NCBI GenBank assembly: GCA_964643685.1
Contig: CAZXTN010000001.1
Span: forward strand, 96,001-160,000
Reading direction: 5' to 3'
DNA from: Candidatus Micrarchaeota archaeon
GTDB lineage: Archaea; B1Sed10-29; JAJRYS01
Length of the DNA stretch: 64,000 nt
Under the pieces are notes generated by a model that made no database searches, was not told the origin of the DNA, and worked only from the letters and a program-made list of their open reading frames with translations. Both the position numbers and the translations under genes were made by a program. Below are positions 3,052-50,627 of this stretch, piece after piece; within the stretch, counting starts at the first letter, position 1; each line of letters begins with the position of its first letter.

Positions 3052-3162
3052 GGGCCTGTAGCATAGTTTGGATTAATGCGCGCGGCTTCGGACCGCGAGA
3101 TCAGGGGTTCAAATATGCCTTGCGGATATTTCCGCATGCATGCGAAAATCCTCTCAGGCCCG
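3052..3162 (+). tRNA. tRNA-Arg(TCG) with T-loop intron at 59/60 (~3114-3148, 35 nt)
   Basis: Acceptor GGGCCTG/CAGGCCC; anticodon arm CGCGG-CT-TCG-GA-CCGCG; T-loop split TTCAAA|...CGAAAA|TCCTCT. Confidence 0.92.
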
Positions 3163-3280
3163 CTTCAACAATTGCAACTGATTCTGATTAGCAAGATTGA
3201 AAAGAAAAGGAAGAGAACAGAAAGAAGAAAAGGAAGTAAAACCTTTCTCCTTTCTTTCAGGGTTTCAGGAACTTGTTTTT

Positions 3281-3655
3281 TTAGATTGTTGCCAAGTCCC
3301 AGATTGTCTTTAAAGCGACAACAACTGCTGCTGGTGTTACGAAAGCCGCTATGTTGTTTATTATTGAAGCTAAAGGAACTCCAATGAATGGGATTAATGA
3401 TAATCCCCCTGCTGTTCCTCCAACTGCAACTAATGCGACTACTGCTAGCAAGAAAGCAGTTACGTCTTTTTCAACTAGGTTCAATAATCCTACAACAAGT
3501 CCTAGGATTACTAGGACAAGGATTACTGTTGCTGATGAGACGTCATCAAGCTGTCCTGCTGCAGACACTAATCCAGCAACTACAGCTATTAAGATACCTA
3601 GCAAGAATGCGTAGTATCCTATGTTGCTGTCGTTTGCTTTGCTTCTTCTAACCAT
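3281..3655 (-). CDS. Small hypothetical membrane protein (~4 TM)
   Basis: Uniformly hydrophobic ~124 aa ORF; TTTATAAA-like box upstream. Confidence 0.75.
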   Translation of the reverse strand: MVRRSKANDSNIGYYAFLLGILIAVVAGLVSAAGQLDDVSSATVILVLVILGLVVGLLNLVEKDVTAFLLAVVALVAVGGTAGGLSLIPFIGVPLASIINNIAAFVTPAAVVVALKTIWDLATI

Positions 3656-3729
3656 GTGTATCAATTAAAACAATAGATAAGCAGGGTTTATAAAGTTTTT
3701 TGTTTTTTAACGTCAAAAAGCGACAAAAG

Positions 3730-4557
3730 TTAGTTTTTTACAAGGATGTCAAATACAACTTGCACGACTGATGGCGAAAAAGGGCGGACAATTCTTTTAG
3801 AAATTATTTCAACCTCTTTTTTTTCTTTTTTTGCAATTTCCTTTATGCGTTTTTCAGAATCAGTATAAGGAAAGTCCTTTTTTGCGAAAGTGTAGAAGTG
3901 TATTATGCAATTTTCGCTAGCCTTCTCAAATGCCTTGCTTAGGAAATCTTCAGCTCCTTTTGGAAGGGGCATGATTATCCTGTCAAATTTAGGCAGTTCA
4001 TCAACAACTTCATTAACGTCTCCTAACACTGGTTTTATTACTTCCTCCATCTTGTTGAGTTTAATATTAGCTTTCAGGCTATTGAATGCATTTTCGTTAA
4101 GCTCAATGGCATAAATTAAAACTTTTTTATTTTTTTTGGCTATGACAAGTGGAAATGGACCTACTCCTGCAAACCATGCGCCTATTACTTCTCCTTCTTT
4201 GACTTGTTTTGCTATTCTTTCTCTTTCGTGGCTTAATCTTGGAGTGAAGTAAACTTTGTTTACGTCTAATCTCATTCTTACTCCTGATTCTTTATATTCT
4301 GTTTGTGTCGTGTTTTCTCCTGCTATCACTTCAACAGGGCGTATTCTGAAAACGCCTTGATGATGCCCTGCTCTTTTGCAGACTGTTTTAATGTTTTTGT
4401 TTAATTGAATGATTGCTTCTCCTATCTGTTTTTGTTTGTGTTGAAGTTCTGGGGGTATTTCAATTATTGCAATTGAACCTATTACGTCATAGCTTGTGAT
4501 TAATTTTTTCATTTCTTCTTCTGTGAGCTTGTCTTTCAGAAGTTCTTTCAAGTTCAT
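3730..4557 (-). CDS. Trm5/Taw2 (Met-10+-like) class I SAM-dependent tRNA-modifying transferase
   Basis: YDVIGSIAII, KVYFTPRLSHER, FAGVGPF SAM motif, DRIIMPLP, IIHFY. Confidence 0.9.
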   Translation of the reverse strand: MNLKELLKDKLTEEEMKKLITSYDVIGSIAIIEIPPELQHKQKQIGEAIIQLNKNIKTVCKRAGHHQGVFRIRPVEVIAGENTTQTEYKESGVRMRLDVNKVYFTPRLSHERERIAKQVKEGEVIGAWFAGVGPFPLVIAKKNKKVLIYAIELNENAFNSLKANIKLNKMEEVIKPVLGDVNEVVDELPKFDRIIMPLPKGAEDFLSKAFEKASENCIIHFYTFAKKDFPYTDSEKRIKEIAKKEKKEVEIISKRIVRPFSPSVVQVVFDILVKN

Positions 4558-4590
4558 AGTTTTATATTTACTCTCTTGATTAAAATAAAC

Positions 4591-5367
4591 ATGATGGATT
4601 GGTTGTCAGCTTATTTCATAGATCCTCTTGTAAAAGGCACAGGGTATAATATTGTTAACACTCTTTTTTTTGGAATTGTTTTTATAATTTTTTTATTTAT
4701 TATTGAAAAGGTTTCTGAGAAGATGAAAATAAAATTTGATGAGAAATTATTTTTTTCCCTTGCTCCATTTATAATTCTTGGGGGAGTTTTAAGGGCTTTG
4801 CAGGACACTGGTTTTTTTAATTTCTTGGGCTATTTCAGGTTCTTGTTTGTGACTCCTGGGATTTATTTTCTCATTTTTTCAATTGTTTTAATCAGCTTGT
4901 GGGTTGAGAAAAAAGGAGTTAAGAATTTTGCAGAGTTAAATGGAGTTGTGCTTGCTGCTTTTTTCTTAACAATTGCTTTGCTTGAGAGCAGGAATTGGAG
5001 CGGGTTTTTAATAGCTGTTTCCCTTGCTCTTATTTCTTTTTTTCTGAGTTTTTTGTTATTCAGAAAATTTCTGAAGTCAATGGAAGCTTGGACAGCTGTT
5101 TTTGCTCATTCGCTTGACGCTTGCAGCAGCGTCACTGCAATTTTAATTGTTGGTGGTTTTTGGGAGCAGCATGTGCTTCCTAAATTCTTATTGAATGCTG
5201 GGTTGTTTTGGCTGTTTATTCCATTGAAGATATTATTTGTTTTGTTTGTTTCTCGTTTTATTGAAGAAGAAAGCAGGGGTAATTGGAGATGGCTTTTTTT
5301 ATTTAGCTTAGTAGTGCTTGGCTTGGGGCCTGGAACGCGTGATGCTTTGGCAATACTTTTACATTAA
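4591..5367 (+). CDS. DUF63-like membrane protein
   Basis: GYNIVNT, GGVLRALQD, FVTPGIYF, AHSLD, EQHVL and LGLGPGTRD match my recollection of archaeal DUF63. Confidence 0.75.
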   Translation: MMDWLSAYFIDPLVKGTGYNIVNTLFFGIVFIIFLFIIEKVSEKMKIKFDEKLFFSLAPFIILGGVLRALQDTGFFNFLGYFRFLFVTPGIYFLIFSIVLISLWVEKKGVKNFAELNGVVLAAFFLTIALLESRNWSGFLIAVSLALISFFLSFLLFRKFLKSMEAWTAVFAHSLDACSSVTAILIVGGFWEQHVLPKFLLNAGLFWLFIPLKILFVLFVSRFIEEESRGNWRWLFLFSLVVLGLGPGTRDALAILLH

Positions 5368-5379
5368 AAAAGAGAGAAA

Positions 5380-5482
5380 TGCGCCTACCGGGAGTTTCAA
5401 GCACGAGAGTTGGTGCTCTTGTCTTGTTGAACCCGGTCCTTGAGCTTGGGAAGCTCACATCATACCTCTAGACTATAGGCGC
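5380..5482 (-). tRNA. tRNA-Gly(CCC) with 59/60 intron (5394-5425, 32 nt)
   Basis: Minus strand GCGCCTA...TGAGC-TT-CCC-AA-GCTCA...TTCAAC|...TGAAAC|TCCCGG-TAGGCGC-A; BHB helix TTCA/TGAA. Confidence 0.93.
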
Positions 5483-5554
5483 ATTAAACACTAAGATAAA
5501 TTAAAGAAAAAAGGAGTATAAAAAAATTAGGAGCAGGGAGAGTGATTATAAGAA

Positions 5555-11580: not shown

Positions 11581-11686
11581 AGCCCTGTAGTCTAGTGGCC
11601 AAGGATGCGGGACTCTGGATCCTGCGACGCAGGTTCGAATAATTTTCGCTTTCAAAAGCGGAAAAACGAAAATCCTGCCAGGGCTA
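11581..11686 (+). tRNA. tRNA-Gln(CTG) with 59/60 intron (11640-11672, 33 nt)
   Basis: AGCCCTG/CAGGGCT acceptor; CGGGA-CT-CTG-GA-TCCTG; BHB helix TTCG/CGAA with AAT bulges. Confidence 0.94.
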
Positions 11687-11711
11687 TTCTCACTAAAAAA
11701 AAACAGGAAAA

Positions 11712-12302
11712 GTGAAAAAAATGGTGGACAAATACGAAGCACAAAAAAAGAGAGATGCTTTAGATGAAATAATTGCAAACGCTACACAAATAGAATGGGA
11801 AAAAGAATGGGAAGAAAGAGTTAGCAAAGAAGTTGCAGAAGCAAAAAAAAGAATAGAAGAAGAAATAGAAAAAAGAATAAAAAAAGGAGAACAACCGCAG
11901 AAAGTAATTGAAGAAATGGAAAACAAAATCCTCCCCAACGGAACAATACTAAAAGAAGAAAGAGAATGGATGAATCAGGCAATTGAAAAAGCCGAAGACA
12001 AAGCAAGATTAACAGAACAAGTAAGGAGAATAGAACAAAACCCAAACCTAAACAGGGACAAAAAAGAGCTATACAAAGTAGTAGCAGCAAGAAGAGTATA
12101 TCAAAAATGGAATAAAAAAGGAATGAACGCAAGAAATGAAACAGTGCCTAGGTTAGTAAAAGAAGCTGAAAAAGAAATTAAAAAGTGGGGCCCATTAGAA
12201 GCAATAAGGGGACCAGAAGAACAGGAAAAGGTAACAGAGTATAATAAAAAAAGAGAAAAAAAGAGAGGAGCAAAGAGAGGGAGTAGAAGGAGGCGTTTTT
12301 AA
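11712..12302 (+). CDS. Hypothetical charged helical protein with basic C-tail
   Basis: 196 aa E/K/R-rich ORF between tRNA genes; no recognisable motif. Confidence 0.65.
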   Translation: MKKMVDKYEAQKKRDALDEIIANATQIEWEKEWEERVSKEVAEAKKRIEEEIEKRIKKGEQPQKVIEEMENKILPNGTILKEEREWMNQAIEKAEDKARLTEQVRRIEQNPNLNRDKKELYKVVAARRVYQKWNKKGMNARNETVPRLVKEAEKEIKKWGPLEAIRGPEEQEKVTEYNKKREKKRGAKRGSRRRRF

Positions 12303-12303
12303 A

Positions 12304-12630
12304 ATGAGTAAATTATTAGATAAATTTAAGAGAATAAGAGAAAGAAAAAGAGCAAGGAGAGAGGACATAAAGCGTATTGAAAAAAACTTAGGGAAAATTG
12401 ACAGAGAGATAAGAGAAATAGAAAATGCTTTAAAAGGCGAGAGAAATTTACTTGAAGAAAGAGGAATGAAAGAGGATATGCCTGACTGGATTAAAGAAAA
12501 AATGGAAAGTGGAGTGGAACAAGAAGTAATTGGCATAGAAGGGAACCCTTCAGAGGTAATTTTAGAACAAAGGTTAATGGAACTTAAGAGAATAAGAAGG
12601 GGATTAAGAGAGGAGTTAAGTAGATTATAG
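12304..12630 (+). CDS. Hypothetical coiled-coil protein
   Basis: 108 aa, directly follows upstream ORF; the last base of its stop codon is the first base of tRNA-Val. Confidence 0.6.
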   Translation: MSKLLDKFKRIRERKRARREDIKRIEKNLGKIDREIREIENALKGERNLLEERGMKEDMPDWIKEKMESGVEQEVIGIEGNPSEVILEQRLMELKRIRRGLREELSRL

Positions 12631-12736
12631 GGCCCGTGGTCTAGTGGTTAGGAAAGCTGGCAGTGGAAAAGCTGTGGTTTTAGCAAACGTCGCCTTCACA
12701 CGGCGGAGATCGCTCGTTCAAGTCGGGCCGGGCCCA
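12630..12736 (+). tRNA. tRNA-Val(CAC) with D-stem intron (~23/24; 12653-12686, 34 nt)
   Basis: GGGCCCG/CGGGCCC; TCGCC-TT-CAC-AC-GGCGG; BHB helix GTTA/TAGC with GGA and AAA bulges. Confidence 0.9.
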
Positions 12737-12756
12737 CTTACAAAAAAACAAAAACT

Positions 12757-12801
12757 GCTTCCGTCTCCCAGGCCCAACTTCCTATGGGCGATCGGACAAG
12801 C
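12757..12801 (+). repeat. 10-nt copy of tRNA-Glu 5' end extended into an imperfect foldback hairpin
   Basis: GCTTCCGTCT equals 12827-12836; continues ...GCCCA-ACTTCCTA-TGGGC-GATCGGACAAGC. Confidence 0.6.
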
Positions 12802-12826
12802 CACACAAGGTGCCTTAAAAAAAATT

Positions 12827-12901
12827 GCTTCCGTCTTCTAGCTCGGTCAAGGATGAGGGACTCTCACTCCCTCGACGCGGGTTCAAATCCCGCCGGAAGC
12901 A
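12827..12901 (+). tRNA. tRNA-Glu(CTC), intronless
   Basis: GCTTCCG/CGGAAGC; AGGGA-CT-CTC-AC-TCCCT; GCGGG-TTCAAAT-CCCGC. Confidence 0.95.
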
Positions 12902-12964
12902 CTTAAAAGGAATAAAAAGCAGTGAAGGGTTTAAATCAGAGAAGAGAGTTAAAGAGGTATTAAG

Positions 12965-13408
12965 ATGGTTGATGAATTAGATTTGCAGATTTTAAGTATA
13001 CTTAGGAGAGATGCTAGGTTGTCTTATAGGAAGATAGCTGAGGAGTTAGGAGTAGCTACGGGAACTGTTCAGAATAGGATACAGAAAATGGAGCAGGAGA
13101 AGGTAATCACTGATTACCATGCAGGAATAGATTTAAGTAAATTAGGTTACAACATAGCTGCGATAATTGGAATATGTATTGATAGAAAAGAAGCAAGCAA
13201 AATAGAAAAAAAATTAGTCAAGCATTCAAATGTGTTTGCTGTTTATTCAGTAACAGGAGAGTATGACTTGTTTGTAGCAACAAGATTTAAGACAATGGAG
13301 GACCTTAATAATTTTATAAGAAAGGAATTGTCAAATGAATCAATACTGAAAACAAATACTTTCATAATATTAAACATTTCAAAAGAAACATACACCTTTC
13401 TAAAATAA
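12965..13408 (+). CDS. Lrp/AsnC family transcriptional regulator
   Basis: DELDLQIL..L..DAR.SY..IAEELGV HTH; VTGEYDL RAM domain. Confidence 0.95.
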   Translation: MVDELDLQILSILRRDARLSYRKIAEELGVATGTVQNRIQKMEQEKVITDYHAGIDLSKLGYNIAAIIGICIDRKEASKIEKKLVKHSNVFAVYSVTGEYDLFVATRFKTMEDLNNFIRKELSNESILKTNTFIILNISKETYTFLK

Positions 13409-13426
13409 AGAGGAGAAGATGAAAAA

Positions 13427-13885
13427 ATGGCAGAAGATGATTATATAATATTCGACGCAAAAGTAGGCAAATGGATAAGCATTAAAAAAATAAAAATAAA
13501 ACCAGACACAGAAAAAGCAGACGTAGCAAGACTCCTGGCAAGCATACATGACTCCATGCACAGGAAAATATGGGACTTCTTATCAGAAGAAGTAAACTTA
13601 AAAGAACTTGACGAAATAGCATATGAAATAACAGGAGCACAATTCGACAAGAAGAAAAAAACATACGTCGTAAAAGGAAGAAAATCAGAAGCACAAATAG
13701 CAGAAGCACTTGCAAAATGCAACTCCCCCTCAACGACAAAAAAGATAACAAAGTCTCCTAACAAGTATTACTTAGAAATAGCAAAAACTTACTTGACAAG
13801 AAAAGTCATCGACTTGCTTGGAGTAAGAATAGAAATAGACCCAAAAACAATTGAAAAATACATGGAACAAAAAAGCAAACTATAA
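13427..13885 (+). CDS. Conserved archaeal hypothetical protein (DUF2666-like)
   Basis: I.F.AK.GKW...KKIKI...TEK.DVARLLASI N-terminus resembles my recollection of DUF2666. Confidence 0.55.
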   Translation: MAEDDYIIFDAKVGKWISIKKIKIKPDTEKADVARLLASIHDSMHRKIWDFLSEEVNLKELDEIAYEITGAQFDKKKKTYVVKGRKSEAQIAEALAKCNSPSTTKKITKSPNKYYLEIAKTYLTRKVIDLLGVRIEIDPKTIEKYMEQKSKL

Positions 13886-13951
13886 AAAAAATCCTTTAAC
13901 AATTTCTTTTAAATACTAAAAAACAAACAAAAAATAGATAACACAAAAAAA

Positions 13952-14133
13952 GGGGCTATAGGGTAGTCATCGCTTACATTAAAAAAAAAGCGACTATAAT
14001 GGTCCATCCTTCCGGCTTTGGGAAAATTCTTCTCAACAGAAGAATTTAAAAACAGCCGGGGACCCCAGTTCGAACCTGCAATGAGTAAACTCACTGAGTT
14101 TTTCTCTTGCAAGAGAAAATCTGGGTAGCCCCA
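13952..14133 (+). tRNA. tRNA-Pro(TGG) with three introns: D-loop 13969-13999, 37/38 14023-14053, 59/60 14075-14119
   Basis: Removing three hairpin inserts gives GGGGCTA-TA-GGGTAGTCTGGTCCATCC-TT-CCGGC-TTTGGGA-GCCGG-GGAC-CCCAG-TTCGAAT-CTGGG-TAGCCCC-A. Confidence 0.9.
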
Positions 14134-14160
14134 TTAACAACTTCTCTAAAAAGAATAAAG

Positions 14161-14280
14161 TTAATTAAACAGAATACACAAGGGTTCCTTCTGCAACTAT
14201 GTTTACTATGCGTTTTGCAGAAGTTTCTTCTGCAACTGCGCTTGCTATGCGTTTTGCAGAAGTGGGGGAGCTTGGAAAAC
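14161..14280 (+). repeat. Degenerate copy of tRNA-Leu(TAA) upstream flank and 5' end, interrupted by two tandem 36-nt hairpins
   Basis: TTAATTAA..AGAA..CAAGGGT and GGAGCTTGGAAAAC match 14286-14328; units CTTCTGCAA...TTGCAGAAG at 14188-14223 and 14227-14262. Confidence 0.85.
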
Positions 14281-14303
14281 TCCCATTAATTAATATAGAA
14301 CAC

Positions 14304-14424
14304 GCAAGGGTGGCGGAGCTTGGAAAACGCGCAGGACTTAAGATCCGTACACAGGTTTTCAAACCTACCGGTTTGGTTATCCTGTGTCTCAGTGACTACG
14401 AGGGTTCAAATCCCTTCCCTTGCA
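14304..14424 (+). tRNA. tRNA-Leu(TAA) with 37/38 intron (~14343-14378, 36 nt)
   Basis: GCAAGGG/CCCTTGC; CAGGA-CT-TAA-G|...|A-TCCTG; long variable arm; GAGGG-TTCAAAT-CCCTT. Confidence 0.9.
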
Positions 14425-14603
14425 CTAATGGGTTTTATGCCCATGGGTTTTGATGCAACTTTTGTCAAAAGTTGCGTTTAAATCCCTTCCCTTGCACTTT
14501 GAAAAAAAATAAAGGGACTAAGCGAAGCGCATGTCGCTGGATTAAATGCAATTTTTGTTAAAAATTGCTGACAATCCCTTCCCTTGCACTAATGGGCTTA
14601 TGC
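14425..14603 (+). mobile_element. Two short palindromic inserts, each followed by a direct repeat of the tRNA-Leu T-loop-to-3' end (att-like)
   Basis: AATCCCTTCCCTTGCACT at 14409, 14481 and 14573; hairpins GCAACTTTT-GTC-AAAAGTTGC and GCAATTTTT-GTT-AAAAATTGC. Repeats are seen directly; mobility is inferred. Confidence 0.65.
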
Positions 14604-14620
14604 TTAATGGAGTTAATTTG

Positions 14621-14773
14621 ATGGGTAAGACTAAAAAAGATTTGAACAAACAAATGCAGTCAATTAAAAAAAGAATTGCTGAGTTAGAGGATAAAGCAAG
14701 AAAAGACCCTTTGAAGAAAAACAAAGCTTTGCATGAAGAACTAGCTAAATTAAAGAAAAAATTAAACAAGTGA
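14621..14773 (+). CDS. Small basic hypothetical protein (50 aa)
   Basis: MGKTKKDLNKQ...LAKLKKKLNK with GGAG upstream; helical pattern. Confidence 0.5.
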   Translation: MGKTKKDLNKQMQSIKKRIAELEDKARKDPLKKNKALHEELAKLKKKLNK

Positions 14774-14784
14774 AAAAGATAAGA

Positions 14785-15168
14785 TTAGATTTTTAGGGTT
14801 TTTTTAACAGCTTCTAATTCATTTTTAGGAATTCTCTTTTCAATTAAAAAATTATAAAAATCTACTTTAACCTTTCTAGGAAGCTTGTTAATATCCTGCG
14901 TTAAAAAGTTCCTCTTCAACCTAGTTTCTCTTAAAATTTGATTAGGATCAACTTTTGGAAGCAAAGTTGACATTGTTGCAAGATCTCCTGCTTCTCTTAT
15001 AGCAGAGTTGATGTCTCTCTGCATTTTTTCTTCTCTTAAATTCTTTCTTGCTTTTGAAAAAGAACGAGCCCATTTCCCATAAAGCCCCAATCTACCAGCT
15101 AAAGTAGCATCTTTAATTGCTTGACTAGCTGGGCTTCTACTACTCCTATTTTTACTTCTTGGTGCCAT
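14785..15168 (-). CDS. Hypothetical basic protein
   Basis: 127 aa ATG ORF with TTTAAATA box upstream; no recognisable motif. Confidence 0.55.
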   Translation of the reverse strand: MAPRSKNRSSRSPASQAIKDATLAGRLGLYGKWARSFSKARKNLREEKMQRDINSAIREAGDLATMSTLLPKVDPNQILRETRLKRNFLTQDINKLPRKVKVDFYNFLIEKRIPKNELEAVKKTLKI

Positions 15169-15225
15169 ATTCTTTTGTTAAGTTTTTTAAAGTATTTAAA
15201 ACCAAAACATAACAGAAAACTAAAA

Positions 15226-15407
15226 GCCTCGGTGGCTAAGACAGCAACAAAAACCAACTTTTTTGCTGTGGAAATGGTATAGCGCGTGCTTGGTAACTCT
15301 TTTGAAAAGGAAGAGACGAAAAGCACGAGGCCGCGGGTTCAATTCTGCGTTAAAAAAAATGAAAAAGAAGGAGTTTTTTTGCGCAGGTGAAAATCCCGCC
15401 CGAGGCT
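15226..15407 (+). tRNA. tRNA-Thr(GGT) with three introns: 15/16 15241-15274, 37/38 15296-15321, 59/60 15344-15393
   Basis: GCCTCGG/CCGAGGC acceptor; spliced D-arm GCTAAGTGGTATAGC; CGTGC-TT-GGT-AA-GCACG; T-loop BHB TTCA/TGAA. Confidence 0.9.
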
Positions 15408-15416
15408 CTTAACTAC

Positions 15417-15968
15417 TTATTCTTTAAGTGGAAGCAGTTCATTCAAGTTTTTTCTTTTGCCGTACCTGCCTATTGAATCATATGGCTTGCTTGCAGGTGT
15501 TTTTAATTCATGAAAAACCATTTTGCCAATAACCATTCCTTTAGTTAACACCACTTCAAAGGGACCTGAATTGCTGATTTCAAGAATTATTTTCCTTGCT
15601 TTTGGAATTCCATGCCCAGCGTGGATCAAAGGAGCAGTTTGCACGACACTTACCCCTACCCTAGCAAGCCCAGTGCGTCCAGTAATAAAACCACTGACAT
15701 CAAGAGGAATTGTAAATTTTTCAAGAGTACGTGCTAAAATAAAACTATTCGGCTTTAAAACAAAACCTTGCTTTGAAATACGTGTTTTTTTATAAAAAAG
15801 AGAGTAATCACTTACGCCTCTTGGATTTAACTTGCCTTGCTTGGCAATTGCTATTGCTGAATCCAAGTGAATCTTATAAGAATCAGGCTGCAAGTCTTTC
15901 TTGTTAAAAGGAGTTATTTTAAGCTTTTTAGAGTTAATTAATTCAAGAATGTCTTTATCAGAATACAT
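15417..15968 (-). CDS. dcd: dCTP deaminase family protein (divergent)
   Basis: SDKDI, LQPDSY.IHL, LKPNSFILARTLE, GRTGLARVG, ILEISN, GM.IG..VF. Confidence 0.85.
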   Translation of the reverse strand: MYSDKDILELINSKKLKITPFNKKDLQPDSYKIHLDSAIAIAKQGKLNPRGVSDYSLFYKKTRISKQGFVLKPNSFILARTLEKFTIPLDVSGFITGRTGLARVGVSVVQTAPLIHAGHGIPKARKIILEISNSGPFEVVLTKGMVIGKMVFHELKTPASKPYDSIGRYGKRKNLNELLPLKE

Positions 15969-16164
15969 ATAAATAAGAAAAAACCAAACAATGTTTATAA
16001 ACATTCGCTCATAAAATACAAATAAAAGGCAGGGACATGCAAACAATTAAAAAATTGTTTGAACCCCCTACATTATAAGACTGCTGTTAAAAATGCAGGG
16101 GTGCATGAACAAAGCAAGTTTGTTCAATCCCCAGCTTGCCACTATGACAAGCTATTAAGAACAA

Positions 16165-16389
16165 GCAGGGGTAGCCAAGAGGTCAACGGCGCCAGGTTCA
16201 GGTGAACTTCTTTCAAAAAGAAGTTCTGAAACGCCTGGTCTCTCAGTGAGTTCAAGGGTTCGAAAGCAGCCGTATCCGGCTGGCGGGCTAGACGACGTTC
16301 ACTTCGTTCAGTCGTCTGGTTTTCTTTTTAAAAAAGAAAAAGAGTCCGCTTTCAGCTGGAAACAGTTGACGGGAATCCCTTTCCCTGCA
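16165..16389 (+). tRNA. tRNA-Leu(CAG) with 37/38 intron (16203-16232, 30 nt) and long 59/60 intron (16265-16375, 111 nt)
   Basis: GCAGGGG/TCCCTGC; CCAGG-TT-CAG-G|...|G-CCTGG with BHB TTCA/TGAA; AAGGG-TTCGAA|...|T-CCCTT. Confidence 0.9.
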
Positions 16390-16425
16390 TTTATTTTCAA
16401 ATTACAAAAAATGAGTAAATGAAAT

Positions 16426-16500
16426 GCCGGGGTGGTTCAGCCTGCCCCTTTCTTTTAAAAAAAGAAAGCGACAAGTTCGCGGAAAGAAAAAAGGTTGAAA
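16426..16500 (+). pseudogene. Orphan tRNA-Met 5' exon plus a different intron-like sequence, no 3' exon
   Basis: GCCGGGGTGGTTCAGCC identical to 16516-16532; followed by 58 nt ending GTTGAAA (real intron ends GCTGAAA). Confidence 0.75.
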
Positions 16501-16515
16501 AACAATAGAAAAAAC

Positions 16516-16633
16516 GCCGGGGTGGTTCAGCCACTGCGTTGAAAAGATTTCAACGTGTTTTCAGCGCAGCTGAAATGGTTAGGACGCAAGACTCATAATC
16601 TTGAGATCGCTGGTTCAAATCCGGCCCCCGGCA
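16516..16633 (+). tRNA. tRNA-Met(CAT), elongator-type, with D-loop intron (16533-16575, 43 nt)
   Basis: GCCGGGG/CCCCGGC; CAAGA-CT-CAT-AA-TCTTG; strict BHB TCAG/CTGA, bulges CCA and AAT, outer stem CTGCG/CGCAG. Ile2(CAT) identity not fully excluded. Confidence 0.9.
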
Positions 16634-16640
16634 CTAAAAA

Positions 16641-16714
16641 AAGGGCTTTATACCCTTTTGGGTTTTGATGCAACTTTTGTTAAAAGTTGCCGAAGATCCA
16701 GCCCCCGGCACTAA
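16641..16714 (+). mobile_element. Palindromic insert followed by a copy of the tRNA-Met 3' end
   Basis: 16659-16690 matches 14444-14475 at 31/32 nt; ATCCAGCCCCCGGCACTAA repeats ATCCGGCCCCCGGCACTAA. Mobility inferred. Confidence 0.65.
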
Positions 16715-16781
16715 GAAATAAATGAAAAAAAGCCATAACAAAGCATTTAAATAATGCTTTAGATAAAAAAACATAGAAACC

Positions 16782-16924
16782 GCCGCAGTAGCACAGTCTG
16801 CAAGAAACGAAGTTTCTTGAGCTTCCACCTTGCAGGTGCAATGGTAGTGCGGCTGCCTTGTAAACAACCTTAAAAAGTTGTTCAGGACAGCAGCAGGTCA
16901 CCGGTTCAAATCCGGTCTGCGGCT
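16782..16924 (+). tRNA. tRNA-Thr(TGT) with 15/16 intron (16797-16841, 45 nt) and 37/38 intron (16863-16888, 26 nt)
   Basis: GCCGCAG/CTGCGGC; strict BHB GCAC/GTGC; GCTGC-CT-TGT-A|...|A-GCAGC. Confidence 0.92.
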
Positions 16925-17115
16925 CTACAATTTGTTGAACAAATTGTATTAAACAATCTATCTTCGGCGACAAGCGCCTTGATAGACTAGTTCAAACTTC
17001 TAACGAAGTTTGAAATCTTTTTTGCCTTACGGCAAAAAAATGAGCACTTCAGCAAGCTGAAGGGGTCAATTGATACAAACTTTTAAAGTTTGTTTTGCCT
17101 TACGGCAAAAAACAA
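16925..17115 (+). ncRNA. Candidate multi-hairpin structured element, copy 1 (tRNA-Thr trailer)
   Basis: First 31 nt identical to 17937-17967, then the same order of hairpins. Confidence 0.55.
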
Positions 17116-17157
17116 AAAGTGAAAGTAGCAAGATAAGAAAATAGGTGTTTTTTGAAA

Positions 17158-17472
17158 ATGATTAAGATATATAAGATACCAAATGAAAAACTGCAAGAAG
17201 CAAAGAAAGTGCTTGAAAACCCAGATGTAACAACAAACAATTGGGCTAGAAACGGCTACACACTAAGAGACGCTAAAATAATTGGCTTTGATGAAAACTG
17301 CAATTACCTATACGTAAAAGCAATTGAAGAATTCTTCCAACAAAACGAAAAACAAATAACAAGCATAGAAGGGGTTGCAATCTTGGAAGGAGAAGAATTT
17401 GAAAAAGTAAAAAACAAAATAGAGGAAGAGCAGGATTCAACAGCCTCAGGAATAGGAGCAATTTTCGGATAA
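17158..17472 (+). CDS. Conserved archaeal hypothetical protein
   Basis: GGTG RBS; W.RNGYTLRDA, YLYVKA, C-terminal A.GIGAIFG resemble a small archaeal family. Confidence 0.75.
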   Translation: MIKIYKIPNEKLQEAKKVLENPDVTTNNWARNGYTLRDAKIIGFDENCNYLYVKAIEEFFQQNEKQITSIEGVAILEGEEFEKVKNKIEEEQDSTASGIGAIFG

Positions 17473-17492
17473 AAAAAGAGAACAAGGTTAAG

Positions 17493-17565
17493 GGGCTCGT
17501 GGGCTAGTCTGGTATGCTCGGAGCTTCGGGAGCTCCTGACCTGAGTTCAAATCTCAGCGAGCCCA
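17493..17565 (+). tRNA. tRNA-Pro(CGG), intronless
   Basis: GGGCTCG/CGAGCCC; GGAGC-TT-CGG-GA-GCTCC; CTGAG-TTCAAAT-CTCAG. Confidence 0.93.
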
Positions 17566-17657
17566 GTTAACAAAAAAAACAGTTCAAAGAAAAAACAAGT
17601 TTGATAAGATACAATATTAATAAATAACAAAAATAAAAGAACAGATAATAAAAAAAT

Positions 17658-17768
17658 CCCGCTGTAGCTTAGTGGTAGAGCGCCTGGCTGTAGTATGGTT
17701 AAACGCGTGAAAAACGTGTTTTGCAGGTGGTCACCGGGAGATCGGGAGTTCAAATCTCCCCGGCGGGA
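17658..17768 (+). tRNA. tRNA-Tyr(GTA) with 37/38 intron (17694-17732, 39 nt)
   Basis: C1-G72 acceptor CCCGCTG/CGGCGGG-A; CCTGG-CT-GTA-G|...|A-CCGGG. Confidence 0.93.
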
Positions 17769-17808
17769 TTGCCTTTAAAAAAAGAAGAAAACATAAAAAA
17801 AGCAAAAT

Positions 17809-17936
17809 GCCCCGGTAGTCTAGTGGTTAGGATTCAGCCCTGTCGAGGCTGAGACTCGGGTTCAAAAGTGACTTTTCTTTTCAAAAAAGAAAAGACACCT
17901 GAAAAGAAAACACTACTGAAAATCCCGGCTGGGGCG
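17809..17936 (+). tRNA. tRNA-Asp(GTC) with 59/60 intron (17867-17922, 56 nt)
   Basis: GCCCCGG/CTGGGGC-G; CAGCC-CT-GTC-GA-GGCTG; TTCAAA|...TGAAAA|TCCCGG. Confidence 0.93.
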
Positions 17937-18222
17937 CTACAATTTGTTGAACAAATTGTATTAAACAGACCACACAAGGTAGTCTTATTCAAACTCTTTC
18001 AGAGTTTGAAATGTTTTTGCCTTCGCAAAAAAGCTTTGCTTCAAAGAAGGGTTGAAACAAAAATTATAAAAGACCCCTAAGAGAAGCACATGTGGTCTGC
18101 GAGGGAATCAGAAATTCCCTAGAAATCAATCGCCTAACGGCTCAAACGTTTTTCCCTAACAGGAAAAACTGAAAGGGGCAGCAAGTCCCCTGCGTTTCGG
18201 TGAGGATTCAGGCTGGGGCGCT
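17937..18222 (+). ncRNA. Candidate multi-hairpin structured element, copy 2, bounded by a repeat of the tRNA-Asp 3' end
   Basis: Same hairpin series as 16925-17115; GGCTGGGGCGCT at 17927-17938 and 18211-18222. Confidence 0.55.
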
Positions 18223-18251
18223 TTAGCTTTAAAGCAAAAAAGATACGAATA

Positions 18252-18265
18252 GAAAAGTATATATA
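18252..18265 (+). promoter_or_regulatory. BRE/TATA promoter of the rpoH operon
   Basis: GAAAAG-TATATATA about 60 nt upstream of the rpoH start. Confidence 0.55.
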
Positions 18266-18326
18266 CTTGGAAAGCAACAAAAGATACACCTATTTTTTTT
18301 CTATTTTTGGGCTGGGTGAAGTTAAT

Positions 18327-31418: not shown

Positions 31419-31546
31419 GCAGAGGTGGCAGAGTGGTAATGCGCTGGTTCACTTTCGCTCGGCGAAATGAACGACTGAACGGAGTGAGGCGAGTCTTGAA
31501 AACCAGTGTCCTCCGGGGCGCTAGGGTTCAAATCCCTACCTCTGCG
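31419..31546 (+). tRNA. tRNA-Ser(TGA) with anticodon-stem intron (~30/31; 31448-31493, 46 nt)
   Basis: GCAGAGG/CCTCTGC-G; spliced CTGGT-CT-TGA-AA-ACCAG; long variable arm; BHB CGCT/GGCG with GGT and AGT bulges. Confidence 0.92.
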
Positions 31547-31560: not shown

Positions 31561-31646
31561 TTTTACAGATTAAGTTGGTTACAAAATGAAATCAATCGCA
31601 AATAAAAGACATGAAGGCTCAAACTTTCATTTTTTATCTGTGAAAA
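31561..31646 (+). repeat. TCAATCGC...GCTCAA hairpin module upstream of Nudix gene
   Basis: Stems TTTTACAGAT/ATCTGTGAAA and AAAATGAAA/TTTCATTTT; relatives at 18122-18154 and 58459-58508. Confidence 0.8.
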
Positions 31647-32128: not shown

Positions 32129-32185
32129 ATGTATGAACTTTTTGAACACAAGCAAACAAACTTGTTTGTTTGCGGTGTCGAATAA
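32129..32185 (+). pseudogene. Relic copy of archease first 7 codons fused to a hairpin (18-codon mini-ORF)
   Basis: ATGTATGAACTTTTTGAACAC (MYELFEH) versus gene ATGTACGAATTATTCGAACAC; then GCAAACAAA-CTTG-TTTGTTTGC. Confidence 0.7.
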
Positions 32186-32199
32186 TGAGGGATAAGGTT

Positions 32200-32613
32200 A
32201 TGTACGAATTATTCGAACACACGGCTGACATAGGCGTGCGCGGATATGGAAAAACAATTGAAGAAGCATTTGAAGAAACAGCAAAAGCAATGACATCAAT
32301 ACTAGTAGACCTGGACACAATCGAAGAAAAAAAGACAATTAAAATAGAAGCAGAAGCAGACACCCCTGAAGAACTTCTATTCGAATGGCTGAATGAAATA
32401 CTAGCACAAATAGACATTGAAGGGATGATATTTAAAAAATTCAAAATAACAAAACTAAAAAACAACAAGCTGGAAGCAGAGTTGACAGGCGAACAACTTT
32501 CACCTGAAAAACACCACACTAAAACGCAAGTAAAAGCAGCTACTTATTCACAGCTAAAAGTATACAAAGATGAAAACGGGCGCTGGATAAGCCAATGCAT
32601 CGTAGACGTCTAA
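32200..32613 (+). CDS. Archease
   Basis: YELFEHTADIG, VKAATY, C-terminal IVDV; directly upstream of rtcB. Confidence 0.95.
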   Translation: MYELFEHTADIGVRGYGKTIEEAFEETAKAMTSILVDLDTIEEKKTIKIEAEADTPEELLFEWLNEILAQIDIEGMIFKKFKITKLKNNKLEAELTGEQLSPEKHHTKTQVKAATYSQLKVYKDENGRWISQCIVDV

Positions 32614-32646
32614 AAAAAATCAAAAAAATTGGAGGTGTGCGGAAGT

Positions 32647-34080
32647 ATGGACTTAGCACAATTAAACAAAATATCAGAATACGAATGGGAAATAGAGCAA
32701 ACAGGAAACATGAACGTACCTGGAAAAATATTCGCTTCACAGTCACTAGTTGAAGCAATGGGAGACAAGGTAAAAGAACAGATTCAAAACGTGGCCCAAT
32801 TGCCAGGAATACAAAAAGCAGCAATGGCAATGCCAGACGCCCACTGGGGCTACGGGTTCCCAATAGGAGGAGTAGCAGCATTTGACCCTGAAGAAGGAGG
32901 AGTCATCTGCATGGGAGGAGTTGGCTACGACATCTCATGCGGAGTAAGGACACTTAAAACAAACATGACACTGGAGGAAATACAGCCTTACTTAGAGCCG
33001 CTAGCAGATGAATTATTTAAAACAGTACCAGCAGGGCTCGGAGTGCATGGAAAAATAAAATTAAACGTCGAGCAATTAGATGAAGTTTTAGTAAACGGAG
33101 CAGAATGGGTTATTGAAAAAGGATATGGCTTAGAAGAAGACTTGGAATACACTGAAGAAAGGGGAAAAATGGGAGGAGCAGACCCAACAAAAGTTTCATA
33201 CAAAGCAAAAAAAAGACAATTTAAAGAGATAGGAACACTCGGCTCAGGAAACCATTACCTAGAAATACAATACGTTGATGAAATCTATGATGAAAAAATA
33301 GCAAAAATGTATGGATTGGAAAAAAACCAAATAGTAATTTCACTGCATTGCGGTTCAAGAGCACTCGGACACCAAATAGGAGTTGATTACACAAAAACGC
33401 TGACAGAAGCAGCTGAAAAATACAAGCTAAATCTACCAGACAAAGAATTGGCAGCAGCTCCAATCAACTCGCCAGAAGGACAAGATTACTACGCTGCAAT
33501 GAAAGCAGGAGTAAACACAGCACTTGCAAACAGGCAAGTGATAGGTCACTTGGCAAGAACAGCATTTGAAAAAATAGTTCCAAACAGCGAAGTAAAAATG
33601 TTCTATGACATTTCACACAACACATGCAAAGAAGAAGAACATGTGATCGGCAACAAGAAAAAGAAATTATTCGTGCACAGGAAAGGGGCGACAAGAGCAT
33701 TCGGCCCAGGCAGAAAAGAACTGCCAAAAAAATACATGCAAGCAGGACAGCCAGTATTAATAGGCGGAACAATGGGAACATCTTCTTTCATTTTAGCTGG
33801 AACAGAAGAAGGAACTGAAAAAACATTCGGAAGCGCCTGCCACGGAGCAGGGAGAGGAATGAGCAGGAAACAAGCTAAAAAACAATTCCACGGAGAAAGC
33901 ATAGTAAGCCAGTTGAAACAGCAGCAGAAGATAATAGTAAAAGCCCATTCAGCAGCAGGAGTAGCTGAAGAAGCGCCAGGAGCTTATAAGAATGTAGAGG
34001 AAGTGGTAAATTCCGTGCATTACACTGGCTTAGCTAAAAAAATAATCCGCTTAAAGCCACTAATAAACATTAAAGGATGA
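32647..34080 (+). CDS. rtcB: RNA-splicing ligase RtcB
   Basis: MPDAHWGYGFPIG, GYDISCG, GSGNHY, HCGSR, HRKGAT, CHGAGR, EEAPGAYK. Confidence 0.97.
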   Translation: MDLAQLNKISEYEWEIEQTGNMNVPGKIFASQSLVEAMGDKVKEQIQNVAQLPGIQKAAMAMPDAHWGYGFPIGGVAAFDPEEGGVICMGGVGYDISCGVRTLKTNMTLEEIQPYLEPLADELFKTVPAGLGVHGKIKLNVEQLDEVLVNGAEWVIEKGYGLEEDLEYTEERGKMGGADPTKVSYKAKKRQFKEIGTLGSGNHYLEIQYVDEIYDEKIAKMYGLEKNQIVISLHCGSRALGHQIGVDYTKTLTEAAEKYKLNLPDKELAAAPINSPEGQDYYAAMKAGVNTALANRQVIGHLARTAFEKIVPNSEVKMFYDISHNTCKEEEHVIGNKKKKLFVHRKGATRAFGPGRKELPKKYMQAGQPVLIGGTMGTSSFILAGTEEGTEKTFGSACHGAGRGMSRKQAKKQFHGESIVSQLKQQQKIIVKAHSAAGVAEEAPGAYKNVEEVVNSVHYTGLAKKIIRLKPLINIKG

Positions 34081-47326: not shown

Positions 47327-47339
47327 AGTGAAAAATAAA

Positions 47340-47813: not shown

Positions 47814-47814
47814 A

Positions 47815-48138: not shown

Positions 48139-48152
48139 AAAAAGATGAAAAA

Positions 48153-48713: not shown

Positions 48714-48715
48714 AA

Positions 48716-48982
48716 ATGGCAATCATAGAAAAAGGAAGAATCTGCATAATAACAAAAGGAGCAGACACAGGCAAAGAAGCAGTAATCAAAGAAGTAATAG
48801 ACAAGAACTTCGTAATAATCATAGGAGAGAAAGTAAAAGAAAGACGCTCAAACATCAAGCACTTGGAACCAACAGACAGGACAACAAATACAATGCCAAC
48901 ACCAAAAACAAAACCAGCAAAAGAAAAAAAGCCGCAGCAAACAAAAAAAGCAGCACCTAAAAAGGAAGAAAAGAAAAAATAA
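48716..48982 (+). CDS. rpl14e: 50S ribosomal protein eL14
   Basis: GRIC..TKG.D.G, IDKNFV, RR.NI.HLEPT. Confidence 0.93.
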   Translation: MAIIEKGRICIITKGADTGKEAVIKEVIDKNFVIIIGEKVKERRSNIKHLEPTDRTTNTMPTPKTKPAKEKKPQQTKKAAPKKEEKKK

Positions 48983-49023
48983 AAACCCAACAGCTACTTC
49001 TCTTTTTTCCAAGTGAATAAAAA

Positions 49024-49854
49024 ATGAAAGGAATAATAATCCTAGACAAGCCGAAAGGCATGACAAGCAACCAAACAAGTCTAGCAGTAAAGCAAATTCT
49101 AAACGAAAAAACAGCACACGTAGGAACACTAGACCCAAACGTAACAGGCATCCTGCCAATACTAGTAGGAAAAGCAATCAAACTGCAGGAATTTCTACAA
49201 GCACATGACAAAGAATACGTATGCATAATGAAAACAAAAGAAAAAATTCCAGAAGAGGAGATAAAAAAAACATTCGAAGAATTCACTGGAAAAATTTACC
49301 AAAAACCACCTGAAATAAGCGCAGTAGCAAAAAAAACAAGAGTAAGGAAAATTTACTCACTTGAATTACTGGAAACAAAAGACAACTTCATCTTATTCAA
49401 AACCTTCTGCCAGCACGGCACATACATAAGAAAATTAATCGAAGACTTTGGATTAATCTGGGGAACAGAAACAGAAATGATAGAACTCAGAAGAACAAAC
49501 GCAGGAGGATTCACAGAACAAGAAGCAGTAACTTTGCAGGAAGTCTTAGATGCTGTCAAATTAAAAGAAAAAAAACCAGAACTATTAAACAAAATAATCA
49601 AGCCAGTTGAATACGCAGTTAAAAGAATGCCCAAGGCAATAGTTAAAAACACAGCAGTTAAAAACATCCAAAACGGGGCGCCAGTATACTCAGCAGGAAT
49701 AATCGAATTAAAAGGAGACGTAAAACACGACAAGCCAGTGGCAATCTTAACGCAGGAAGGAAAGTTAATAGCAGTTGGAATAAGCTTGTACGATAAGCCA
49801 GAGACAAGGAAACATAAAAAAGCAATAAAAACAAAAAAAGTAATGAGAATATGA
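49024..49854 (+). CDS. cbf5: Pseudouridine synthase Cbf5/TruB with PUA domain
   Basis: LDKP.G.TS, HVGTLDP catalytic Asp, GTYIRKL, ELRRT. Confidence 0.93.
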   Translation: MKGIIILDKPKGMTSNQTSLAVKQILNEKTAHVGTLDPNVTGILPILVGKAIKLQEFLQAHDKEYVCIMKTKEKIPEEEIKKTFEEFTGKIYQKPPEISAVAKKTRVRKIYSLELLETKDNFILFKTFCQHGTYIRKLIEDFGLIWGTETEMIELRRTNAGGFTEQEAVTLQEVLDAVKLKEKKPELLNKIIKPVEYAVKRMPKAIVKNTAVKNIQNGAPVYSAGIIELKGDVKHDKPVAILTQEGKLIAVGISLYDKPETRKHKKAIKTKKVMRI

Positions 49855-50406
49855 GATATGACTACTATGATAAATTCATTGACAAAAAAACAATAGGGAT
49901 AAGAGACATAACTCCCATATTTTACAAAAAAAAAGGCATTCAACCAACTAATCAAAGACATGTCAAAACCATTTAAAAAACAAAAAATAGATAAAATAGC
50001 AGCTATTGACGCAATGGGATTTATACTCGGCTCAGCAATGGCTCTAGAATTAAAAACAGGATTTGTGCCAATAAGAAAAGAAGAAAGATTACCTGGAATG
50101 AAAAAAATAAGCACTTCATTCATAGATTTCAGCAAGAAGAAAAAAGCACTTGAAATAAACCAAGCATCAATTAAAAAAAATGAAAAAATATTAATAGTAG
50201 ATGACTGGATGGAAACAGGCTCACAAATAAGAGCAGCAATCAAGCTAATTCAAAAACAAAAAGGAAAAGTAATAGGCATAAGCCTCTTTGCAGCAGAAAA
50301 AAAAGAAGAAACAAAAGAACTGTTTGACAAATACAAAATAAAAGCAGTAGGAGTATTTGAAGGAGAAGAACTTGAAAGAATAAAAAAACAAATAAAAAGG
50401 TATTAA
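49851..50406 (+). pseudogene. apt: Adenine phosphoribosyltransferase-like gene with a frameshift near 49920-49934
   Basis: RDITPIF lies in the frame of ATG 49851; AFNQLI, IDAMGF, PIRK and LIVDDWMETG lie in the +1 frame; T4 and A9 runs at the junction. Confidence 0.75.
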
Positions 50407-50433
50407 GGAGTATAATAACTATAAAAAATAAAA

Positions 50434-50627
50434 GCGGTGGTCGCATAGTCCCTCGTAAAAACGAAGTTTTTTCGTTGGGTGCAATGGCTATTGCGCCAGC
50501 CTGGAAACAACCCATAAAAATACAAAAAGGTTGACTGCAAGCTGGTGTCCTCCGGGGCACGCGAGTTCAAGTTTGCGACAAGGTTCCCTCGTCGAACTTT
50601 TCGCAAGCGAAAATCTCGCCCACCGCG
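50434..50627 (+). tRNA. tRNA-Ser(GGA) with three introns: 15/16 50449-50484, 37/38 50507-50539, 59/60 50572-50613
   Basis: GCGGTGG/CCACCGC-G; CCAGC-CT-GGA-A|...|A-GCTGG; variable arm TGTCCTCCGGGGC as in Ser(TGA). Confidence 0.9.

Follow-up and report, generated by a model that had tools for sequence, protein, structure and literature searches.

Densely interrupted tRNA genes with predicted bulge-helix-bulge introns in a 64-kb stretch of a Micrarchaeota-labelled DPANN archaeon

Can tRNA genes that are interrupted in almost every case, and mostly outside the canonical position, be working genes? This question is raised by a stretch of 64,000 nucleotides (nt) of contig CAZXTN010000001.1 (GCA_964643685.1, positions 96,001-160,000 of the forward strand) deposited as Candidatus Micrarchaeota archaeon. 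We refer to this whole stretch as the window and give all coordinates within it. It contains 16 tRNA genes with 16 different anticodons, which span positions 3052-50627. Fourteen of the 16 genes (88%) are interrupted, by 22 introns in total (~1.4 introns per gene). We consider it highly likely (a probability of roughly 0.88) that these are functional archaeal tRNA genes with protein-spliced introns of the bulge-helix-bulge (BHB) type, in a DPANN archaeon from a clade labelled Micrarchaeota in the RpoA' tree.

The majority of the tRNA genes (12/16) form a 6.4-kb cluster (11581-17936), which lies a short way upstream of rpoH-rpoB-rpoA. The four genes outside the cluster lie at 3052 and 5380 (the latter on the minus strand) and at 31419 and 50434. 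Glu-CTC and Pro-CGG are the two genes that lack an intron. Five of the 16 genes are multiply interrupted: three introns were found in Pro-TGG, Thr-GGT and Ser-GGA, with one insert each in the D, anticodon and T loops, and two in Leu-CAG and Thr-TGT. The most frequent site was the T-loop at 59/60 (eight introns of 32-111 nt: Arg, Gly, Gln, Pro-TGG, Thr-GGT, Leu-CAG, Asp and Ser-GGA), followed by the canonical site 37/38 (seven introns: Pro-TGG, Leu-TAA, Thr-GGT, Leu-CAG, Thr-TGT, Tyr and Ser-GGA). Another five interrupt the D-loop immediately before G18G19 (Pro-TGG, Thr-GGT, Met, Thr-TGT and Ser-GGA), three after base 15 and two after base 17 in the cloverleaf numbering set in this analysis, on which all position labels depend. 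Their splice sites are ambiguous by 1-4 nt, as several boundary solutions give acceptable D-arms. The remaining two introns interrupt stems, namely the 3' strand of the D-stem (Val) and the 5' strand of the anticodon stem (Ser-TGA). Hence, 15 of the 22 introns are non-canonical. The intron lengths range from 26 to 111 nt (median: 35.5 nt, sum: 894 nt).

The genes are listed below with their introns and the ARAGORN score of the spliced product. The BHB triplets count the base pairs (bp) of the central (4-bp), outer and inner helices, in this order; MFE stands for minimum free energy.

3052..3162, plus strand: tRNA-Arg(TCG); 59/60 intron 3114-3148 (35 nt); ARAGORN 122.8; BHB 3/4 central, 5-bp outer; cloverleaf 21/21
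5380..5482, minus strand: tRNA-Gly(CCC); 59/60 intron 5394-5425 (32 nt); ARAGORN 113.8; strict BHB 4,6,2
11581..11686, plus strand: tRNA-Gln(CTG); 59/60 intron 11640-11672 (33 nt); ARAGORN 124.9; BHB 4,5,0, present in the local MFE fold
12630..12736, plus strand: tRNA-Val(CAC); D-stem intron 12653-12686 (34 nt, 23/24 by BHB); ARAGORN 119.1; strict BHB 4,3,6
12827..12901, plus strand: tRNA-Glu(CTC); no intron; ARAGORN 116.8; Rfam tRNA 54 bits
13952..14133, plus strand: tRNA-Pro(TGG); D-loop 13969-13999, 37/38 14023-14053, 59/60 14075-14119; ARAGORN 123.2; BHB 4,0,6; 3,7,10; 3,5,2
14304..14424, plus strand: tRNA-Leu(TAA); 37/38 intron 14343-14378 (36 nt); ARAGORN 117.7; BHB 3,8,0; Rfam 45 bits unspliced
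15226..15407, plus strand: tRNA-Thr(GGT); D-loop 15241-15274, 37/38 15296-15321, 59/60 15344-15393; ARAGORN 123.7; BHB 3,0,6; 3,5,7; 4,5,2
16165..16389, plus strand: tRNA-Leu(CAG); 37/38 16203-16232, 59/60 16265-16375 (111 nt); ARAGORN 121.3; BHB 4,6,10; 4,5,0
16516..16633, plus strand: tRNA-Met or Ile2 (CAT); D-loop intron 16533-16575 (43 nt); ARAGORN 120.3; BHB 4,1,12
16782..16924, plus strand: tRNA-Thr(TGT); D-loop 16797-16841, 37/38 16863-16888; ARAGORN 123.7; BHB 4,0,7; 4,5,1
17493..17565, plus strand: tRNA-Pro(CGG); no intron; ARAGORN 118.3
17658..17768, plus strand: tRNA-Tyr(GTA); 37/38 intron 17694-17732 (39 nt); ARAGORN 118.7; Rfam 55.5 bits
17809..17936, plus strand: tRNA-Asp(GTC); 59/60 intron 17867-17922 (56 nt); ARAGORN 123.1; strict BHB 4,5,3, present in the MFE fold
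31419..31546, plus strand: tRNA-Ser(TGA); anticodon-stem intron 31448-31493 (46 nt); ARAGORN 119.8; BHB 4,1,7
50434..50627, plus strand: tRNA-Ser(GGA); D-loop 50449-50484, 37/38 50507-50539, 59/60 50572-50613; ARAGORN 117.3; BHB 4,9,2; 2,8,5; 3,5,2

For the D-loop intron of Thr-GGT, 15241-15274 was preferred to the boundary 15237-15269: with it, the D stem has 4 bp and the ARAGORN score is 123.7 instead of 113.9. No gene is split or permuted: all exons of the 16 genes are colinear within spans of 73-225 nt. Rfam found no group I or group II intron family in the window, either at the gathering score or at E≤10. A first-pass annotation of this DNA had counted 14 of 16 genes as interrupted, with 22 introns, 15 of them non-canonical (eight at 59/60, seven at 37/38, five in the D-loop, one in the D-stem of Val and one in the anticodon stem of Ser-TGA). 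Our recomputation reproduced the gene set, the end points and the tally exactly. The mismatched central helices pointed out there are present as well, with three of four pairs in Arg (TTCA/CGAA) and Pro-TGG (TTTG/AAAA) and two of four in Ser-GGA (CTGG/ACTG).

The inserts lie within tRNA genes, and their removal restores a canonical cloverleaf. After cutting them out by coordinates, ARAGORN identified all 16 tRNAs with the expected anticodons. The scores were 113.8-124.9, the same range as for the intronless Glu-CTC and Pro-CGG (116.8 and 118.3). When the loci were left unspliced, three of the 16 were reported, one of them with a false 4-base anticodon. Our own scorer found 20-21 of 21 cloverleaf pairs (a score of 52-54) in 15 of the 16 genes. 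It mis-solved Leu-TAA, so the assignment of this gene relies on ARAGORN and Rfam.

As a control, the same splice-and-score procedure (free ends, up to two BHB-filtered introns allowed) was run on 150 random 140-nt coding windows. None of the 150 scored above 43, compared with 52-54 for the real genes. The whole window was also screened for a 7-bp acceptor helix beside a T arm, contiguous or split; introns breaking the TTCRA T-loop motif escape this screen. All 16 genes were recovered. The 19 other rows all overlap protein-coding open reading frames (ORFs) and score at most 48 (search run to the end for 15 of the 19), again vs 52-54.

The junctions carry BHB pairing far above chance. They were scored with a rigid 3-4-3 geometry, meaning two 3-nt bulges, each cut after the second base. 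All four central pairs were found at 14 of the 22 junctions, and 21 have three or four of them together with a flanking helix of 2 bp or more. Six junctions are strict BHB motifs, and 16 are relaxed by this rigid geometry. Decoy junctions (random shift of up to 12 nt) averaged 1.65, 2.53 and 0.04, respectively, for these three counts, and none of 1000 decoy sets equalled any observed count. The layout was common to all T-loop introns: the outer helix is formed by the T stem, four bases near the 3' end of the intron pair with bases 54-57, and bases 58-59 belong to the bulge. This mirrors the layout of the anticodon arm at 37/38. In the D-loop introns, the outer helix is usually absent, and there is a long intron-internal hairpin instead.

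These arrangements suggest the following route. Each gene would be transcribed as a precursor in which exon-intron pairs form a 4-bp helix between two 3-nt bulges, often in the relaxed form only. At 37/38 and 59/60, the outer helix would come from the anticodon or T stem, and loop bases 32-35 or 54-57, the first four, would pair with the intron's 3' end. In the D-loop, the intron-internal hairpin would replace the usually missing outer helix. The splicing endonuclease EndA, presumably encoded outside the window, would cut both bulges, and the ligase RtcB with archease would join the exons. Transcription, cleavage and ligation, as well as the broad specificity of the endonuclease, are steps that we infer. 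The genes for the joining step are side by side in the window (32170-34080), both full-length:

32170..32613, plus strand: archease; Pfam Archease E 1.2e-45, full profile
32629..34080, plus strand: RtcB, exon-joining tRNA-splicing ligase; Pfam RtcB E 7.6e-168, profile 1-426 of 426; NCBIfam RtcB models

Archease is a cofactor of RtcB. Because 16 of the 22 motifs are not strict, it is reasonable to expect a broad-specificity (relaxed) EndA in this organism, as proposed in the first-pass annotation, with its gene outside the window.

Further signs point to living genes. The G+C content is 60.8% in the exons, 39.8% in the introns and 36.1% in the window, which suggests that only the exons resist the A+T drift of the genome. 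The inserts are confined to three structurally equivalent hot spots and two stem sites, which is not expected of random insertion. No second copy of any of the 16 anticodons was found in the 64-kb window, so none of the genes has a spare there; within this scope, the intronless copies that the first-pass annotation named as a possible refutation are absent. Identity elements of archaeal tRNAs are in place: C1:G72 in tRNA-Tyr, A1:U72 in tRNA-Gln, U73 in both tRNA-Thr, and G73 in both tRNA-Ser and in tRNA-Asp.

A scan of genome contigs with RpoB'' gave only two loci (L001 and L002), which are 39-40% identical. Both have the gene order tRNA-Tyr, tRNA-Asp, tRNA-Lys, rpoH, rpoB'', and this order is kept in the window except for tRNA-Lys. 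In the compared loci, rpoH is represented by an rpoH-sized ORF. The syntenic tRNA-Tyr carries a canonical intron of 48 nt in both loci, and the syntenic tRNA-Asp is intronless. In the alignment, the tRNA-Asp gene of the window is the gene of L001 and L002 plus a clean 56-nt insert inside the T-loop. As the Tyr intron is common to these distant loci and the Asp insert is absent there, the canonical intron seems to be old and the 59/60 intron to be specific to this lineage. The slot of tRNA-Lys (17937-18266 vs L001:431-584 and L002:6804-7147) is occupied by a 286-nt element and a deleted tRNA-Asp remnant (18199-18221). Nothing convincing was found for tRNA-Lys in the window by blastn-short with the tRNA-Lys of L002 or by an anticodon-arm pattern search.

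The interrupted genes might instead be pseudogenes killed by insertion, with working intronless copies elsewhere in the genome. Just 64 kb of the genome were seen, and tRNA debris does exist here (partial copies and the internally deleted tRNA-Asp remnant at 18199-18221). However, the exons of the interrupted genes are undecayed: their stems are intact (20-21 of 21 pairs in 15 of the 16 genes), their ARAGORN scores equal those of the intact genes, and their G+C content is far from that of the window. A true remnant such as 18199-18221 looks quite different. Moreover, the inserts occur at BHB-competent sites only. Fourteen simultaneous pseudogenes with 14 different anticodons would be implausible in a core ribosomal and RNA-polymerase neighbourhood, and the tRNA sets of most archaeal chromosomes are non-redundant according to the available text of Sugahara et al. 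2012 (PMC3293823). We therefore regard dead genes as highly improbable.

In a milder version, most inserts are spliced, but a single one or a handful of the most relaxed inserts are removed inefficiently or never, which would impair those genes. The candidates are the 37/38 intron of Ser-GGA, the 59/60 intron of Arg (a central mismatch and no inner helix) and the 111-nt T-loop intron of Leu-CAG. The 16 non-strict motifs and the absence of the BHB from 17 of the 22 local MFE folds speak for it. On the other side, motifs without one helix (hBH and HBh') are cleaved by (alpha-beta)2 and epsilon2 enzymes (PMC3239211), the exons of the candidate genes are as intact as the others, and the window offers no replacement for Ser-GGA, Arg-TCG or Leu-CAG. 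Poor splicing of individual introns appears quite unlikely to us.

Several observations weigh against our reading of functional, spliced genes. An EndA domain was found by Pfam in none of the 86 ORFs of the window; eight unannotated ORFs gave no EndA by Pfam at E≤1 or by NCBIfam, and two of them gave none in a phmmer search of the PDB. The BHB appears in just five of the 22 unconstrained local MFE folds, and for this reason pairing geometry and decoy controls were used for the junctions; the outer helix is complete (5/5 pairs) in 13 of these folds. The 37/38 intron of Ser-GGA has just two of the four central pairs. BHB quality helped to choose some boundaries, chiefly those of the five D-loop introns, and this inflates their BHB statistic. 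L001 and L002 are too distant (39-40% in RpoB'') for a covariation analysis of the intron helices. Finally, the use of the junctions in vivo is predicted from the DNA sequence.

The tRNA genes are accompanied by partial copies of their own exons and by a shared hairpin module:

12757..12768, plus strand: shorter 5' exon copy, before tRNA-Glu
14262..14282, plus strand: copy of a D-arm piece of tRNA-Leu(TAA), upstream of the gene
14444..14475, plus strand: 32-nt hairpin module, 97% identical to 16659-16690 (tRNA-Met locus) and 75% to 14537-14568; blastn E 1.6e-12
14476..14496 and 14572..14588, plus strand: two copies of the T-loop/3' exon of tRNA-Leu(TAA), downstream of the gene
16095..16102, plus strand: shorter 5' exon copy (8 nt), before tRNA-Leu(CAG)
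16426..16442, plus strand: 17-nt copy of the first exon of tRNA-Met, 90 nt upstream; its end coincides exactly with the D-loop splice site
16696..16710, plus strand: repeat of the 3' exon of tRNA-Met, 77 nt downstream of the genuine exon

All partial copies are on the same strand as their parents and within 170 nt. In a search with a 12-mer seed that tolerated one mismatch, five copies of at least 15 nt were found within 170 nt of their own gene, compared with six such matches to non-tRNA DNA across the rest of the window on both strands (hand counts). A downstream 'copy' of tRNA-Asp was rejected as a second 3' exon: it is the deleted remnant of tRNA-Asp, in which part of the D-arm is joined to a 3' piece of the acceptor. 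Upstream of tRNA-Leu(TAA), two tandem 39-nt units (87% identical, each capable of forming a hairpin) lie at 14184-14261, between a promoter-like stretch and the D-arm copy.

The distal copies of the 3' exons of tRNA-Met and tRNA-Leu(TAA) could also be used, or be used instead of the proximal ones. This would add 59/60 introns at 16620-16696 and 14411-14574 and bring the total to 24 rather than 22. The Met copy at 16696-16710 is preceded by 4+2 nt that can pair with the T-loop, giving three of four central pairs and a 5-bp outer helix (hand-read), the same central helix as in the accepted Arg intron; its use would turn a G-U pair of the T-stem into A-U. The 4+2 nt before the third Leu copy likewise give 3/4 central pairs and a 5-bp outer helix, and the screen for acceptor helix and T arm lists both arrangements. 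In contrast, the second Leu copy reaches just 2/4 pairs, and all of these pairings were counted by hand from the printed sequence. Moreover, with the proximal copies the T arms and 3' ends are already complete and contiguous, and the tRNA should therefore be set free by end-processing first. Use of the distal exons thus seems unlikely, and we keep the count of 22 introns.

Each copy of the 32-nt hairpin module sits just before a copy of the 3' exon of its host gene. The spacer between the first and the second 3'-exon copy is homologous at the Met and Leu(TAA) loci (~50-60 nt: 14425-14475 and 16634-16690), while the exons differ. A second shared piece is an A/T hairpin of ~21 nt. It is found in the T-loop introns of Leu-CAG (16320-16340) and Asp (17873-17893) and in the spacer after the upstream Met copy (16448-16468), with identities of 86-95% (95% between the Leu-CAG and Asp introns) and blastn E-values of 9e-6 to 1e-4. 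Given the low complexity of the sequence, a common origin of these copies is uncertain. Direct repeats as at a mobile element are present, but the spacers measure 60-90 nt, none of nine ORFs near the tRNA cluster matched PHROGs as an integrase or phage-like protein, and Pfam gave no integrase domain.

The exon copies and the shared spacer hint at an ongoing turnover of tRNA introns. One tentative and rather doubtful idea is that the hairpin spacer between 3'-exon copies is an intermediate in the birth of a 59/60 intron, by duplication of the 3' exon around a mobile spacer, or in its loss. In the case of loss, a new contiguous 3' exon would have been laid in front of an old intron. If true, this would be a route at the DNA level without a nearby integrase, unlike the two published models (intron transposition and large-element integration). 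In any case, the exon copies and the shared spacer are a concrete and testable handle on the gain and loss of non-canonical introns.

Hairpin-rich elements of ~210 nt (16925-17135) and 286 nt (17937-18222) follow directly after the discriminator base of tRNA-Thr(TGT) and tRNA-Asp, respectively. Both open with the same 31 nt, including a 23-nt palindrome that occurs at just these two places. Their fold z-scores are -7.0 and -5.3, and Rfam gave no family above noise there. An 11-nt motif directly precedes a small hairpin with a conserved loop at three places on the plus strand (18123-18145, 31589-31622 and 58464-58497), with no match in 100 shuffles. One of the copies is between the genes of S28e and L24e, and one follows tRNA-Ser(TGA).

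The first-pass annotation had also expected that default annotation would miss many of these genes, and this proved correct. With default settings, ARAGORN found two of the 16 genes correctly and miscalled one. With introns allowed, six of 16 were found. A lowered threshold produced false genes inside rpoB and elsewhere. Rfam at the gathering score touched five of the 16 loci, two of these just in part, and at E≤10 it touched ten; the intronless Pro-CGG (17493-17565, ARAGORN 118.3) was still missed. A standard tRNA search in this lineage thus recovers a fraction of the genes (2-6 of 16 here). Hence, claims on genome completeness, codon usage or 'missing tRNAs' for such DPANN genomes will be wrong unless the searches are BHB-aware.

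The window (36.1% G+C) is an archaeal core region. The Pfam scan of its 86 ORFs showed PolB, a Trm5/Taw-like methyltransferase, rpoH-B''-B'-A'-A'', EF-2, EF-1alpha and a large ribosomal protein cluster. SecY, Cbf5/TruB, the RNase P protein p29, GluRS, aIF5B and aIF2-gamma were also found. The plus strand is extremely A-rich at 20000-64000 (AT skew of 0.44-0.59 per 4-kb window), and nearly all genes there are on the plus strand. The frame of aIF2-gamma (61635-61850) is open from 61635, and the GTPase G1 motif is encoded before the first ATG/GTG/TTG at 61782. Translation therefore presumably begins at an unusual codon or is coupled to the nearby upstream stop of S6e.

Judged by its RpoA', the host is a DPANN archaeon of a clade whose relatives carry Micrarchaeota labels. 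The best labelled relatives of RpoA' are Candidatus Micrarchaeota (67-57% identity), Diapherotrites (62%) and the DPANN group (59%). The closest RpoA' proteins overall are 91% and 87% identical, and a relative of RtcB reaches 93%. In a maximum-likelihood tree of 22 rows, the window falls into a clade (support 100/99) with three Micrarchaeota-labelled rows and one DPANN-group row, and this clade adjoins a Diapherotrites-labelled clade. Micrarchaeota-labelled rows also occur elsewhere in the tree, so the labels of the depositors are inconsistent. The matches of RtcB carry labels from Euryarchaeota to Nitrospirota and are thus uninformative on the taxon, as was the search of the ESM Atlas with EF-2.

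How does this locus compare with known systems? The first-pass annotation had named Thermoproteales and ARMAN archaea, with their broad-specificity endonucleases, as precedents for such intron loads, and the literature bears this out as far as its available text goes. In ARMAN-2 (Candidatus Micrarchaeum acidiphilum), which has a three-unit epsilon2 EndA, 56% of the tRNA genes are disrupted (Fujishima et al. 2011, PMC3239211), and in archaea with an (alpha-beta)2 EndA, the share is up to 87% (PMC3239211, PMC4033280). The window resembles ARMAN-2 in coming from a DPANN archaeon, in its non-canonical sites, including 59/60 with relaxed hBH motifs, and in having several introns per gene (PMC3239211). 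It differs in the share of disrupted genes, which is 14 of 16 (88%) here, although from a partial sample. The epsilon2 EndA of ARMAN-2 cleaves a precursor with a 59/60 intron in vitro; the tested intron was 13 nt long (PMC3239211), whereas the T-loop introns of the window measure 32-111 nt. As Micrarchaeota labels occur in more than one clade of the RpoA' tree, the likeness to ARMAN-2 is by group label and not by measured kinship.

For Thermoproteales, which have an (alpha-beta)2 EndA, up to three introns per gene are described; in extreme cases, over half of the genes have several introns, and different tRNAs carry similar ones (Fujishima and Kanai 2014, PMC4033280, which in the text available summarises Sugahara 2008 and Fujishima 2010). 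The window likewise has up to three introns per gene, and its 88% compares with up to 87% disrupted genes. However, Thermoproteales are hyperthermophilic, G+C-rich crenarchaeal organisms, and the window is DPANN DNA with 36% G+C. Similar intron sequences in different tRNA genes are common to both, but in the window the shared pieces are short (the 21-nt hairpin with 95% identity in the T-loop introns of Leu-CAG and Asp).

In DPANN lineages with an alpha4 EndA carrying an L3 loop, tRNAscan-SE 2.0 finds incomplete tRNA sets, an outcome read as pointing to disrupted genes that escaped detection (Kaneta et al. 2018, PMC5829648). Going by the available text of that study, the window is the kind of locus it predicted. 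At the gene for tRNA-Thr(GGU) in Caldiarchaeum subterraneum, repeats of tRNA fragments were linked to intron gain via an integrating mobile element (Sugahara et al. 2012, PMC3293823). The window also has direct repeats of a tRNA 5' or 3' end beside the gene. The repeats in C. subterraneum flank a 1.8-kb insert encoding a recombinase, while the spacers here are 60-90 nt long, no integrase or phage-like protein was found, and the same spacer module occurs at two different tRNA genes. The integration model of PMC3293823 fits the repeats of the window, but not the tiny spacers or the shared module.

Our literature search found no census of tRNA introns in Micrarchaeota beyond ARMAN-1/-2 and Mancarchaeum, and how unusual the 88% is may also depend on any per-genome intron tables in the supplements of PMC5829648 and PMC3239211. 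In the literature compared here, as far as its text was available, this value from a sample of 16 genes matches the highest figure for a whole genome, but it comes from a DPANN archaeon of low G+C content. The intron load strengthens the link between EndA variants of DPANN archaea and the disruption of tRNA genes. The EndA of the host is a worthwhile target, as it is predicted to act at 59/60, in the D-loop, in the D-stem and in the anticodon stem, and on one central helix in which two pairs are mismatched. Measured against these published systems, to the extent that their texts cover the point, the locus is probably a case of ordinary archaeal BHB splicing at extraordinary density, and its 16 genes, a sample of the genome, are a very dense new example within the known range.

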